57,166 bases of DNA, from the NCBI GenBank assembly GCA_947488275.1, contig CANKZX010000004.1, positions 1 through 57,166 of the forward strand, read 5' to 3'. Shown here one piece after another: positions 28,954 through 53,246 of the stretch. Origin of the DNA: Alphaproteobacteria bacterium (GTDB lineage: Bacteria > Pseudomonadota > Alphaproteobacteria > Paracaedibacterales > CAIOTO01). Position 1 is the first letter of the stretch; every line of letters starts with the position of its first letter. The position numbers were made by a program, and so were the translations under genes. The notes below the pieces were generated by a model. It was not told the DNA's origin and searched no databases. It was given only the letters and a program-made list of their open reading frames with translations.

Positions 28954-29107
28954 TGCAAAAATAAATTACACGATTTAAACCCACCGTCATCACGAAAAAG
29001 CCGAAGGCTTTTGTGGTGAATCCAGGGTTGTTTTCCTGGATGACCACGACCTTCGGGCTCGCCATGACAAGGAAAACAGAAAGATAATCGTGCTGCTTAT
29101 TTTTGCA
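28954..29107. repeat. composite palindromic element: CGTC-type REP pair (28985-29068) inside an outer imperfect inverted repeat
   Basis: GTCATCACGA...ATCCAG / CTGGATGACCAC...TCGCCATGAC; outer TGCAAAAATAA..CACGATT / AATCGTG..TTATTTTTGCA. Confidence 0.8.
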
Positions 29108-39342: not shown

Positions 39343-40380
39343 ATGGCTTTTAAGAATTTAATATTTACTGTTGTTGGCGCAACAGGTGCCGTTGGCAATG
39401 CTGTTTTATCATTATTAGCCGAACGCGGCATTCCCAAAGAAAATGTACAAGCCGTTGCGTCCAAACGTTCCCTTGGTGCCTCTGTTTCCTATGGTGACCA
39501 TGCAGAATTAGCCATAAAACCCCTTGAACATTTTGATTTCAGCACCACCCACATTGCTTTCTTTGCTGTTAGCAGTGATATATCGGCAGAATACATGCTA
39601 CGCGCCACACAACAAGGCGCCCTTGTTATCGATAAATCATCATACTTTCGTATGAATGCTGATGTCCCCCTCATTGTGCCAGAGGTTAACCCAGATGCAA
39701 TTGCGCATGCCGCCAAGCGTCGCATCATCGCAAATCCAAATTGTTCAACGATTCAGCTTGTCGCGGCTTTAAAGCCCATTCACGACATTAATCCCATTAA
39801 ACGGATCGTTTTATCGACATACCAAGCTGTTTCAGGCGCAGGTAGTAATGCAATGGATATCCTTTATAATGAAACAAAAACCGTACTAATGAATCAACCA
39901 TCCACACCAAACACAACCTTTCCCAAGCCCATTGCCTTTAATGTGATTCCAAAAATTGATGTCTTTATGGATGATGGTGGCTCAAAAGAAGAATGGAAAA
40001 TGATTGAGGAGACAAAGAAAATTTTGTCACCTGATATTCGTGTAGCAGCAACATGTGTGCGTGTGCCTGTTTTTGTTGGACATTCAATTGCAGTGACGCT
40101 TGAGCTAACGCAAACGTTTGATGTGAAAGAAATCATAAAAGCACTCAAAACATCTAAAGCGCTGAAAGTAGCAGGAACTATCGATCAATTCCATACACCA
40201 TCGGAGGCTGCACAGGAAGATTATATCTTTGTGAGCCGCATTCGCCGTGATACCTCCACCGAAAATGGATTATCTTTATGGATTGTAGCGGATAATTTAC
40301 GCAAAGGCGCTGCATTGAATGCAGTTCAAATTGCCGAACACGCGTATAAACATCATAAGTACTTAATTCGTGATCACTAA
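39343..40380 (+). CDS. asd: aspartate-semialdehyde dehydrogenase
   Basis: VVGATGAVG, ANPNCST, TYQAVSGAG, DNLRKGAALNAVQIAE. Confidence 0.98.
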   Translation: MAFKNLIFTVVGATGAVGNAVLSLLAERGIPKENVQAVASKRSLGASVSYGDHAELAIKPLEHFDFSTTHIAFFAVSSDISAEYMLRATQQGALVIDKSSYFRMNADVPLIVPEVNPDAIAHAAKRRIIANPNCSTIQLVAALKPIHDINPIKRIVLSTYQAVSGAGSNAMDILYNETKTVLMNQPSTPNTTFPKPIAFNVIPKIDVFMDDGGSKEEWKMIEETKKILSPDIRVAATCVRVPVFVGHSIAVTLELTQTFDVKEIIKALKTSKALKVAGTIDQFHTPSEAAQEDYIFVSRIRRDTSTENGLSLWIVADNLRKGAALNAVQIAEHAYKHHKYLIRDH

Positions 40381-40642
40381 AAAAAGGGTTATGAAATTTA
40401 TTAAGAACCTTCCACCTAAGCATCAATCTCAAATCAAAAAATATATTTTGAATTTCCAAGAAACGCCGATCCCTCATGACTCTCAAGCATTAAAAGGGTA
40501 CGAACCTTATCGCCGCAAAGATTGCGGTGAATACCGAATTATTTACAAAATCGATGAAGAGATTAAAACGATTTACATTATTCTTGTTGGAAAAAGAAAT
40601 GGCGGAGAAGTTTATAAGTTCTTGAGCAATATCCTCAATTAG
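40370..40642 (+). CDS. RelE/ParE-family toxin
   Basis: PIPHDSQALKG..YRRKDCGEYRIIY...VGKRN. Confidence 0.85.
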   Translation: MITKKRVMKFIKNLPPKHQSQIKKYILNFQETPIPHDSQALKGYEPYRRKDCGEYRIIYKIDEEIKTIYIILVGKRNGGEVYKFLSNILN

Positions 40643-41079
40643 CCATTCTGAAAAATACGACTAAAAACCGTCTTGATCTGATAATCTTTCTTTGGTCCTT
40701 TCACTGTATATAACATGTCAAAATGATCATGATCGTGAAATACCCACTTACAATGATACACATCCTGATTACATAAATGATCATGCTGTGCCCTTACAGG
40801 AAACATTGTGTCCGTGACATTAACCTGATGCAACAAAACGCCATCACTTTTCAAAAGCGTAAATGTGGTGGGTGTCACATGATAGGTGTGCGATTGAAAG
40901 CATGTTTGGCAATCATTGTGTAACTGATACAGACCTTTCTCGGTATATAACACACGATTATTATCGGATGCTTCAAAATGCGCCATCCCAGTTATGGTAA
41001 TATTTGGCTCTGAAACGCACCGTATGAATGCCCAATCCCTTGTAAAAATATGATGAAAGTTAAGTTTTTTAAAAGTCAT
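40639..41079 (-). CDS. DUF6314-like hypothetical protein
   Basis: GMAHF, LYTEKG, HLCNQDVY, VKGPKKDY pattern. Confidence 0.7.
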   Translation of the reverse strand: MTFKKLNFHHIFTRDWAFIRCVSEPNITITGMAHFEASDNNRVLYTEKGLYQLHNDCQTCFQSHTYHVTPTTFTLLKSDGVLLHQVNVTDTMFPVRAQHDHLCNQDVYHCKWVFHDHDHFDMLYTVKGPKKDYQIKTVFSRIFQNG

Positions 41080-41129
41080 TTGTTTAAAGTCTTATGTGTA
41101 AAAATTATGTATTATACGCAGTGCTCACG

Positions 41130-41196
41130 TTTACTCTGCCAAAAATGCGCCGTCGCATCCAAGAAATTCTGCAGCATCGCATGACCATGTTCACTC
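41130..41196. repeat. 67-bp direct repeat, copy 1 (duplicated pabA 3' end)
   Basis: 66/67 identical to 41587-41653. Confidence 0.95.
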
Positions 41197-41586
41197 GTCG
41201 TCATGGCGAATCTGCAAAGCAGATGTGGCCATCCAGTTAAATAATATCGTCATATAAATCTTTCCATACTGGATTAACACGCTCAATAAGCATTAGCTTA
41301 TTCTTTCGCGATCCTTTTTTAATTTGTGTTTCACGTTGAATTGCCGCCTCCATTGTGTCATGTAATTCATAAAACACAAGATATTTACAACCATATTTTT
41401 TACTAAAACCATTATACAATAATGCTTTATGATCGTAGACTCTCTTAACTAAATCGGATGTAACACCTGTATAAAGTGCGCCATTTCGTTGATTTGTGAT
41501 AATGTAAACAGCAGGTTTTTTCATATATTACATGTTTTTCTGGATGGCTACGCCCCTTCGGGACTCGCCATGACGGCGCCTCTATA
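41197..41586. mobile_element. GIY-YIG nuclease cassette bounded by CGTC-type palindromes
   Basis: GTCGTCATGGCGA...ATCCAG on the left and CTGGATG...TCGCCATGACGGC on the right; flanked by 67-bp direct repeats. Confidence 0.8.
41237..41524 (-). CDS. GIY-YIG nuclease family protein
   Basis: VYII..NGALYTGVTSDL, AIQRETQIK, NPVWKDL. Confidence 0.95.
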   Translation of the reverse strand: MKKPAVYIITNQRNGALYTGVTSDLVKRVYDHKALLYNGFSKKYGCKYLVFYELHDTMEAAIQRETQIKKGSRKNKLMLIERVNPVWKDLYDDII

Positions 41587-42207
41587 TTTACTCTGCCAAA
41601 AATGCGCCGTCGCATCCAAGAAATTCTGCAGCACCGCATGACCATGTTCACTCATAACCGATTCAGGATGAAATTGCACACCATATGTTGGATGGATTTT
41701 ATGTTGCACCGCCATAATGATACGCCTACTCTCCCCTAACGATTTCATATCATCAGGCAACCAAGCCGTTACCGCTAACACATCAGGCAATACCTCTGCC
41801 TCTATCACGAGTGAGTGATACCGCATCACCTGAAATGACGTTGGCAATCCTTTAAATATAGGGTTATCACTCAACTGATCAATCGTAATCATACTTGTTT
41901 TACCATGGATTGGCACTGTCGCCCGCACAATCTTTCCACCAAAAACGTGCCCTATACATTGATGCCCAAGACATACCCCAAAAATTGGGATACGCCCTGA
42001 AAACTGTTCAATTATAGCATTTGATAAACCAGCTTCTATAGGGGAACATGGTCCTGGCGAAATGACAATGGCTTTATAATTCGCCTGTTCAATGGCATCG
42101 AGTGTAATCGCATCATTACGAAAAACAACAACATCTTGCCCTAGTTCCACCAAATAACGTTGCAAATTAAAAATGAAAGAATCGTAGTTATCAATGAGAA
42201 GAATCAT
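41548..42207 (-). CDS. pabA: aminodeoxychorismate/anthranilate synthase component II
   Basis: IDNYDSF, SPGP, GVCLGHQ, RYHSL, GVQFHPES; trpG versus pabA cannot be resolved from sequence alone. Confidence 0.9.
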   Translation of the reverse strand: MILLIDNYDSFIFNLQRYLVELGQDVVVFRNDAITLDAIEQANYKAIVISPGPCSPIEAGLSNAIIEQFSGRIPIFGVCLGHQCIGHVFGGKIVRATVPIHGKTSMITIDQLSDNPIFKGLPTSFQVMRYHSLVIEAEVLPDVLAVTAWLPDDMKSLGESRRIIMAVQHKIHPTYGVQFHPESVMSEHGHAVLQNFLDATAHFWQSKYRGAVMASPEGA

Positions 42208-42434
42208 GATTGAGTTAAAACGTTTTGATTGTATCTATCTTGATAATACTTCAGCACAAACACGCGTAAATGACTAGCTAAATTCACATCCTTACGGTGA
42301 CAATCCTGATATGTTACTAAATCGTTTAGACTCATATCATCGCGTATTGCAATTTCTAAAAGTGCGTCCCAGAATTCTTCTTCCAAAGCAAGGCTGGTGG
42401 CATGCCCTGAAAGGCGTATTGACTTTTTTATCAT
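42204..42434 (-). CDS. ribbon-helix-helix domain protein
   Basis: KKSIRLSGHATSLALEEEFW...NLASHLRVFVL. Confidence 0.9.
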   Translation of the reverse strand: MIKKSIRLSGHATSLALEEEFWDALLEIAIRDDMSLNDLVTYQDCHRKDVNLASHLRVFVLKYYQDRYNQNVLTQS

Positions 42435-53009: not shown

Positions 53010-53246
53010 AACCCCAGTTCGGGATTTCGACAAACAAAAACCTATAGTTTCCATCATGGCGAGCCAGCGTAAGCTGGTGCGGTCATCCAGAAAAACAAAC
53101 ATTTTCGACGTAACAAGCATTTCTGACGCAACAGGCATTTCCGATGTAACAGCCACTGGATCACCACAAAAGCCTTCGGCTTTTTCGTGATGACGATTAC
53201 ATAACATATATAGAGTTTTCTTCATGTTTAATCCCGAATTGGGGTT
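53010..53246. repeat. composite palindromic element: outer 17-bp inverted repeat, CGTC-type REP pair, three 18-bp tandem repeats
   Basis: AACCCCAGTTCGGGATT / AATCCCGAATTGGGGTT; 53156-53195 is the reverse complement of 28985-29025 apart from one indel; tandem units at 53101-53154. Confidence 0.82.

Follow-up and report, generated by a model that had tools for sequence, protein, structure and literature searches.

In an alphaproteobacterium of the order Paracaedibacterales (CAIOTO01), a small cassette, consisting of a nuclease gene between two inverted DNA hairpins, has inserted into the end of pabA, a glutamine amidotransferase gene. The insertion duplicated 67 nt of the target, and the cassette was later copied, together with a piece of that target, to a second locus of the same genome. 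The window, that is, the whole stretch of 57,166 nt analysed here, is contig C4 of a metagenome-assembled genome (G000; 69 contigs, 1.47 Mb, 39.6% G+C, 89% complete), and the public sequencing runs that contain this stretch are lake and other freshwater metagenomes. By its sequence, the cassette belongs, as a variant, to an element type already known, the Ssn/SRM system (NTS-ssnA-NTS; Chenal et al., Nat Commun 2025, PMC11893778). The novelty lies in its insertion signature: an empty pabA site in a relative, a copy on contig C48 that carries a piece of the target, and further checked duplications. The locus is composed as follows (REP, repetitive extragenic palindrome).

41112-41129, minus strand: relic of the original pabA tail (REHCV) and stop codon, from the translation of 41112-41198 (minus), which ends ...FWQSKREHCV-stop
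41130-41196, minus strand: downstream 67-nt copy, no longer translated in PabA (direct repeat family D1)
41199-41236, plus strand: left hairpin (REP-L), a CGTC-tagged variant of the Ssn-related motif (nhmmer family, strict pattern match, DNA fold)
41237-41524, minus strand: ssn-type gene for a 95-aa single-domain GIY-YIG nuclease (Pfam PF01541, E 9.5e-16)
41540-41575, minus strand: right hairpin (REP-R), which encodes the new PabA tail and stop (strict pattern match; pabA reading frame end at 41548)
41576-41586, minus strand: 11-nt outer-shell remnant (TATAGAGGCGC), our reading from comparison with ...CTATAGTTTC-CGTCAT flanks
41587-41653, minus strand: upstream 67-nt copy, the translated pabA end (SEHGHAVLQNFLDATAHFWQSK; open reading frame list, repeat search, comparison with the relative G005)
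41548-42207, minus strand: pabA/trpG-type glutamine amidotransferase gene with 12 new C-terminal residues (Pfam GATase, residues 3-197)

The cassette measures 390 bp and lies between two direct repeats (41130-41196 and 41587-41653; 67 nt, 99% identical, spaced 457 nt) whose sole mismatch sets a T at 41177 against a C at 41634. A single open reading frame, the 95-aa GIY-YIG gene, is found inside, and the repeat search recovers inverted arms (17 nt at 88% plus 17 nt at 82%). Each arm is a two-part hairpin of 36-38 nt, CGTC-ATGGC-(inner stem-loop)-GCCAT-CCAG, with a 5-bp outer stem and a small internal loop; the left one lies at 41199-41236 on the plus strand and the right one at 41540-41575 on the minus strand, with the CGTC ends facing outwards and the hairpins inwards. 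The left hairpin begins 2 nt from the 67-nt repeat and, as drawn, folds as DNA at -8.2 kcal/mol (z -3.3). The outer shell is complete at the C48 copy and in copies of MITE2 (MITE, miniature inverted-repeat transposable element), while the C4 cassette retains 11 nt of it only. Much of this architecture had been recognized in a sequence-only reading of the locus, and our repeat search, reading frame list and translation agree with it on the 67-bp repeats with one mismatch around a 390-bp cassette, on the GIY-YIG gene as the only gene between inverted hairpins (Pfam E 9.5e-16), on a downstream copy that reads to ...WQSKREHCV with its stop at 41112-41114, and on a PabA that now ends inside the element, at a stop within the right hairpin (reading frame end 41548).

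An Rfam scan of 40900-41900 on both strands gave no match at E up to 1, and the cassette is therefore not a known ribozyme or intron. A simple promoter and terminator scan of 41000-41800 found neither.

Insertion into pabA and the copy on contig C48

Among six same-genus genomes, pabA was found in one, G005, where the gene is frameshifted and its 5' side syntenic. The 3' end of this pabA aligns to the 67-mer and then ends ...FWQDAC, with no cassette and with its stop at the place that corresponds to the relic stop (41112-41114) of the window. Since the G005 gene has the 67-mer without the cassette, this comparison identifies the 67-mer as native pabA sequence and the cassette as an insertion; an empty pabA site in a relative, which the sequence-only reading had proposed to look for, does exist. 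At the one variable site of the repeats, the downstream copy keeps an A, as do the C48 copy and G005. A scan of metagenome contigs with PabA gave a best match of 56% identity, and thus no closer empty or filled pabA sites.

The pabA reading frame now ends ...WQSKYRGAVMASPEGA, its stop lying within the right hairpin. Within the 219 residues, the amidotransferase domain ends at about 198-201 according to NCBIfam models, and the replaced tail is non-conserved. Furthermore, the chorismate-binding partner enzyme is intact on contig C1, and so pabA is probably in use.

A second nuclease gene, whose protein is 84% identical, lies on contig C48 in the flhB-rpmB spacer. There the left hairpin is followed by the same two linking bases (GT) and then by a 67-mer, a junction in common with the pabA cassette, and the arrangement is also seen in an independent metagenome contig (run X3, record 18). 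The C48 67-mer is decayed, with 16-18 differences from the pabA copy, one deletion and one insertion. Between the two nuclease genes we calculate a pS of 0.22, a dS of 0.27 (pS and dS, synonymous differences and divergence) and a dN/dS (nonsynonymous to synonymous ratio) of 0.29, by which both genes are under constraint. The divergence of the 67-mers equals the synonymous divergence of the genes; thus gene, hairpin and pabA piece were copied together, and the insertion in pabA is older than dS 0.27. It follows that the single difference in 67 between the two pabA repeats is no sign of a recent event. Polarization by G005 assigns about 13 changes to the C48 branch and about 5 to that of the pabA locus, where both 67-mers carry them. 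Their near-identity is most likely due to gene conversion from the selected copy, the alternative being re-duplication. In G005 itself, the flhB-rpmB spacer (contig C15, 9107-9490; L280) holds no nuclease gene, and the inner loops of its hairpins match both arms of the pabA cassette; they may be left over from a cassette at this position, which in G000 is occupied by the second copy.

The assembly was checked against Logan contigs (k=31) from four lake or other aquatic metagenome runs (X1-X4) of three studies, one of which runs may be the source sample; no RNA run was listed as containing the stretch, which is uninformative on expression. The left junction is present in X1 record 2 (41147-41277), X2 record 10 (41130-41277) and X4 record 26 (41124-41415), the last of which takes in 6 nt of non-cassette flank, all of the left repeat and then 219 nt of cassette sequence. 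The right junction is present in X1 record 5 (41248-41633), while records of X2 and X3 (41248-41616) stop after the first 30 nt of the right repeat, where the bridging rule asks for one more. The sequence-only reading had called for spanning reads at both junctions: both junctions are recovered and the left repeat is spanned, but the right repeat is wholly spanned by no contig, because the repeats are longer than k=31 and the contigs end at the single mismatch. The right-repeat side of the assembly thus rests on the assembled contig and on elimination. Additionally, contigs of run X4 depart from the window sequence at 41115 and 41124, so that what lies between the relic pabA stop and the DUF6314 gene is different in the X4 strain. 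DUF6314 is encoded on another contig in G005, and the region downstream of pabA is a variable spot.

The nuclease and its hairpin family

The main text of Chenal et al. (2025; PMC11893778) describes SsnA from N. meningitidis, a GIY-YIG enzyme of 94 aa with a single domain. Its binding to the NTS hairpin (CGTCATTCCCGCGMAVGCGGGAATCYRG) requires single-stranded DNA and one particular orientation, and the cut falls a few nt upstream of the hairpin (about 4 nt by our own reckoning from the oligonucleotide positions given there). Homologues from many phyla are flanked by related hairpins (SRM). That text likens NTS-ssnA-NTS to an insertion sequence and offers mobility as a hypothesis only, with no movement shown in it.

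The nuclease of the cassette agrees with this description in size (95 against 94 aa), in its single domain and in its conserved catalytic residues. GIY-YIG, over residues 4-76 of 95, is the only Pfam family matched. In an alignment with 18 relatives Y7, Y18, R28, H32 and N84 are invariant and E65 nearly so (at least 90%); by position, Y7, Y18 and E65 would correspond to SsnA Y6, Y17 and E64. A PDB sequence search gave no match at E up to 0.01, and the 23 bits scored with the NCBIfam intron-endonuclease model fall short of its cut-off of 56. The hairpins have CGTC, AT..AT and CCAG in common with the published NTS: an unpaired CGTC head, an AT..AT palindrome and a C-YRG tail are found on both sides of the gene, with the heads outward, and both arms fit the strict pattern of the G000 consensus (CGTCATGGCGA..GTGGCCATCCAG; nhmmer). 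By homology to SsnA, the nuclease is expected to recognize its own hairpin as single-stranded DNA and to cleave a few bases upstream of that hairpin. The sequence-only reading had proposed the unit as a candidate autonomous partner of this REP family, a suggestion that fits the Ssn/SRM system but is not new, the pairing of a small GIY-YIG gene with a hairpin repeat family being described already in Chenal et al. 2025 (PMC11893778).

Searching with this single nuclease protein, we inspected the 80 nearest homologue loci of other genomes (51-66% identity). A match to the published SRM lies within 250 nt in 26 of them, on both sides in 11, and the canonical NTS occurs in five; the counts of 26 and five serve as a proxy for membership of the Ssn nuclease family (CDD model cd10448). 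Among relatives, 15 of 17 GIY genes are bracketed by inverted hairpins on our reading of the flanks. A third GIY-YIG paralogue of G000, 52% identical, lies on contig C24 (15117-15593) in a phage-like region, close to tail-like genes and a cell-wall hydrolase; the hairpins on its two sides are of a different type, AGATCYGCGGGTCAAGCYYGCGGAAAAC, which in relatives keeps a TGTCAT head. In genome G052 two equally scoring nuclease cassettes stand in tandem on contig C1 (1405193-1406083; L225), 624 nt apart, with 252-nt direct repeats between the units.

A hairpin census of G000 (nhmmer, three rounds) yielded 138 loci. In the 104 copies that could be parsed, the outer stem covaries (ATGGC/GCCAT in 26, ATAGC/GCTAT in 15, ATGAC/GTCAT in 3), and the inner stem of the family is variable with compensation. 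Wobble pairs in the outer stem (43 G-T against 32 A-C among 520 pairs) show no clear strand bias on this rough parse. An inward-facing partner lies within 520 nt of 110 of the 138 hairpins, giving 107 distinct head-to-head pairs. The cassette is thus a hairpin pair that carries a gene where other copies have a short spacer. Most of the family, 87 of the 138 hairpins, lies inside two MITE-like shells, at no more than 260 nt from the shell ends, and the spacer between the two hairpins there is made of 16-18-nt tandem units that vary in number. The shells have terminal inverted repeats of their own (TATACYCARCACCGAT... and AACCCCAATTCGGGATT...); no long or autonomous element with either shell's ends was found in G000. 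A Y1 transposase (PF01797, Y1_Tnp) was likewise not found in this 89%-complete genome.

Strict hairpin matches also occur in relatives, numbering 48 in G001 and 31 in G014, with lower counts in a further four genomes of the genus and a single match in G018, against none in controls. G005 carries the hairpin type, and an intact nuclease gene was not found there. In G014 (contig C2, 56170-56274) a 22-residue remnant of the nuclease C-terminus, 73% identical and with a stop, stands directly beside a family hairpin and looks like a decayed cassette. Two further members of the family lie in the window.

29031-29068, minus strand: hairpin-family copy (nhmmer)
53054-53095, plus strand: hairpin-family copy within a MITE shell (nhmmer, shell comparison)

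As to the neighbouring genes, a ribbon-helix-helix gene (RHH_4; 42204-42434) overlaps the pabA start and is syntenic in G005, and a ParE-toxin-like 90-aa reading frame (40370-40642) lies downstream of asd, with no obvious antitoxin partner called.

Long target duplications and their possible origin

Exact flanking repeats of at least 19 nt occur at 3 of the 107 hairpin pairs of G000, against 8 of 5000 random pseudo-elements placed in the same genome. On contig C5 (38918-39141; L241), a gene-less hairpin pair sits at the stop codon of a sigma-70-family gene. The duplication is a perfect 33 nt, the last 10 codons of that gene, and the first base of the element rebuilds the TAA stop. G005 has one copy of the site, on which two BLAST segments overlap by exactly 33 nt, and the site is empty in five of five same-genus genomes. 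The C5 unit ends early, with 2-4 nt of microhomology at the junction. On contig C8 (1945-2131; L242), an intergenic region holds a 149-nt insert that includes a 99-nt hairpin pair and is flanked by perfect 19-nt direct repeats.

A further case is found in G002, in which a cassette of the other nuclease clade lies between 52-nt repeats at lptA/lptB. The repeat comprises the last four lptA codons, the spacer and the first nine lptB codons, and so lptA and lptB both stay whole. The site is empty in all four same-genus genomes that have lptA and lptB adjacent; G000 lptB was unusable as an empty site, its N-terminus and context being different. The sequence-only reading had allowed that its duplication might be a one-off local event if no other copy had one, and these cases, 33 nt on C5 and 52 nt in G002 with empty sites checked, speak otherwise. 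Scans of nuclease loci for gene-fragment duplications (20 loci of relatives, 79 diverse loci with one of 80 skipped for its short flank, and 33 order-wide) yielded only the pabA and G002 lptB cases, the other repeats being hairpins or tandem arrays. Four shell-type insertions were compared with G005; two were readable, with about 8 nt and 0-1 nt at the junction, and two sites were not clean. Finally, an insertion of 1285 nt at the end of priA (G000 contig C7, 24080-25365; L268, 2080-3364) holds one 378-aa AAA_14/DUF4143 gene and has no hairpins at its ends, and is flanked by an 18-nt duplication of the priA end with one mismatch; G005 has a single copy without the insert. Long target duplications are thus real and recurrent in the genus, yet exceptional, variable (19, 33, 52 and 67 nt) and not confined to hairpin units.

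In this context, the data show that an Ssn-type unit inserted in pabA, that 67 nt were duplicated and that the unit was copied later to C48; as the probable origin of the duplication we put forward host replication or repair. The insertion would have come once the lineage had separated from G005, a unit truncated at its outer ends entering five codons before the pabA stop. The upstream 67-mer keeps the whole amidotransferase domain in frame, the hairpin adds 12 residues and a stop, and the downstream 67-mer with the old pabA stop is left as a relic. Later, at a dS of about 0.27, gene, left hairpin and relic were copied jointly to the flhB-rpmB spacer on C48; the two pabA 67-mers have remained nearly identical, most likely through gene conversion. 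Two routes to the duplication may be envisaged. In the first, a nick or gap would be extended by strand displacement and a nuclease-freed copy of the element then joined in; in the second, the replisome would switch template into a donor element and return 67 nt upstream. The nuclease may still supply free ends: SsnA cuts upstream of its hairpin, and it is on the upstream side of the CGTC tags, at 2 and 11 nt, that the repeat boundaries are found. Irregular capture during replication or repair fits better than a measured staggered cut by the nuclease, because the duplications are rare and variable, the ends are truncated, the C5 junction shows microhomology and the 18-nt case is hairpin-free. 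The mobile unit that the sequence-only reading had proposed is therefore upheld as regards insertion (G005 without the cassette) and copying (C48), whereas its widely staggered nicks by the nuclease find no support.

Several observations weigh against this reading, in whole or in part. No flanking repeat of at least 19 nt is seen at 104 of the 107 hairpin pairs of G000, or at any of 16 hairpin dimers sampled in G001 and G014 (one has 13 nt), and the long duplication is therefore an exception and not a family rule. The hairpin-free case at priA means that the duplication may be unconnected with the nuclease, whose activity is itself assigned by homology. The pabA site has a single empty comparator, G005, which is frameshifted and has a different downstream neighbour. 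No Logan contig joins across the cassette or shows an excised or empty form, though some bins have no cover and the absence of an empty allele is not implied. The lowest-energy fold of the right arm (z -0.8) is not the canonical hairpin. Lastly, the published SRM motif, HGTCWYN(0-2)YYVSBRHN(0-5)WNVSBRGN(0-2)RNCYNB, matches none of the 138 G000 hairpins, and G000 would therefore count as SRM-free by the published criterion; in the whole genome it has 3 matches, against 1-2 in each of five Markov-simulated genomes.

More broadly, Ssn hairpin units might be transposase-free mobile elements in general, the nuclease freeing a copy that the host joins at a strand-displaced nick with variable duplications of 19-67 nt. 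We hold this only tentatively and consider it rather doubtful. If true, it would be a new transposition route, and it would explain both the spread of CGTC-type REPs and their settling at gene ends without killing the gene.

In an alternative scenario, the GIY-YIG protein, alone or with host factors, would itself transpose the unit, nicking the target at points tens of bases apart, with joining of the unit and gap filling. Three hairpin elements have duplications checked against empty sites and a fourth has one that is unchecked; the distance from the CGTC tags out to the repeat boundaries, 2-11 nt, is roughly that at which SsnA-type enzymes cut; and the unit has no other gene, in a genome where a Y1 transposase was not found. 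We nevertheless judge true transposition to be unlikely. In the main text of Chenal et al. (PMC11893778), cleavage by Ssn enzymes is confined to single-stranded DNA beside the cognate hairpin. Such a hairpin is absent from the targets. Furthermore, lengths of 19-67 nt reveal no ruler, the inserted units have truncated ends that are not alike, a long repeat is missing at most copies, and the same signature stands at the hairpin-free insertion.

Less probable still is a Campbell-type integration, in which a circle made of the cassette and a captured piece of pabA recombined with pabA, so that the repeats are the homology segment, and the same circle integrated on C48 via hairpin homology. On C48 the 67-mer does have the left hairpin on one side and a further forward hairpin on the other, the order expected of a circle junction, and G052 has two cassette copies in tandem, 624 nt apart. 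However, an earlier event is needed to bring pabA sequence into the circle, and the C5 and G002 duplications are of different genes, each calling for a separate capture. The 12 nt after the C48 67-mer match the circle junction at 6 positions and the native pabA tail at 5, both weak matches, and no circle or empty-site joint is seen in the Logan contigs. Finally, it is highly improbable that unrelated events or an artefact produced the locus, either through a tandem duplication of the pabA end into which the cassette landed later or through an assembly that merged two alleles: the right repeat cannot be spanned by k=31 contigs and the region downstream of pabA is variable (X4 beyond 41124, a different neighbour in G005), but X4 record 26 holds non-cassette flank, whole left repeat and cassette in one contig, the same pattern occurs at two other genes with single-copy empty sites, and the junction of hairpin and 67-mer is preserved at C48.

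Relation to known systems

The locus offers rare direct evidence that Ssn hairpin units, first described in 2025, move, and of how they land. In this genus, filled sites can be set beside empty ones for hairpin units with a gene and for those without, and there is in addition a dated secondary copy with a piece of the first target. The insertion signature is an odd one, with long and variable duplications that leave the neighbouring genes intact, and a unit of 390 bp makes the movement of Ssn units and its route testable. As the published SRM search motif misses whole hairpin families, the spread of the Ssn system is probably underestimated.

The unit resembles the Ssn/NTS-SRM system (PMC11893778, main text) in its single-domain GIY-YIG protein of about 94 aa and its inverted bracketing hairpins, in the CGTC tag, AT..AT stem and CYRG tail of these hairpins, and in the more than 100 gene-less copies in a small-genome bacterium, here from lake water. 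It differs from the published SRM in a longer (34-40 nt), two-part hairpin, whose 5-bp outer stem is separated from a variable inner stem-loop by an internal loop, and the genus of G000 offers filled and empty sites and long target duplications that set it apart from the cases in that main text. The words "duplication", "target site" and "direct repeat" do not occur in the main text of Chenal et al., nor do "duplication" and "target site" in that of Di Nocera, De Gregorio and Rocco (2013; PMC3733652). In a full-text literature search, only Chenal et al. 2025 was found for Ssn and no paper on GIY-YIG proteins with REPs or target duplications, although the supplementary repeat tables of Chenal et al. 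may bear on this.

With the CGTC-tagged REPs, described in the main text of PMC3733652 as having no dedicated mobilizing enzyme, the family shares the CGTC tag, AT stem ends and short tail, a prevalence of head-to-head dimers (here 110 of 138 with a partner) and the occurrence of some copies within genes. As in REPtrons, as these are portrayed in the main texts of PMC11893778 and PMC3733652, a small nuclease-type gene lies between inverted copies of the main hairpin repeat, with gene-less copies elsewhere; unlike in REPtrons, the protein has a GIY-YIG fold and not that of HUH/Y1 enzymes.

The unit does not conform to a classical insertion sequence or transposon, having no transposase, truncated ends, and duplications of 19-67 nt that are absent at 104 of 107 pairs. 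IS200/IS605-type movement is not known to leave a target duplication. Phage free-standing GIY-YIG homing endonucleases (of the Seg and I-TevI type) have a separate DNA-binding domain and cut double-stranded DNA, homologous repair following without duplication; what the cassette shares with them is a small GIY-YIG gene between, or at the ends of, host genes. Penelope-like retroelements, which are eukaryotic and encode a reverse transcriptase, have a GIY-YIG nickase and target duplications that are variable and sometimes long. The cassette, unlike them, has no polymerase gene, and GIY-YIG together with variable duplications is what the two have in common.

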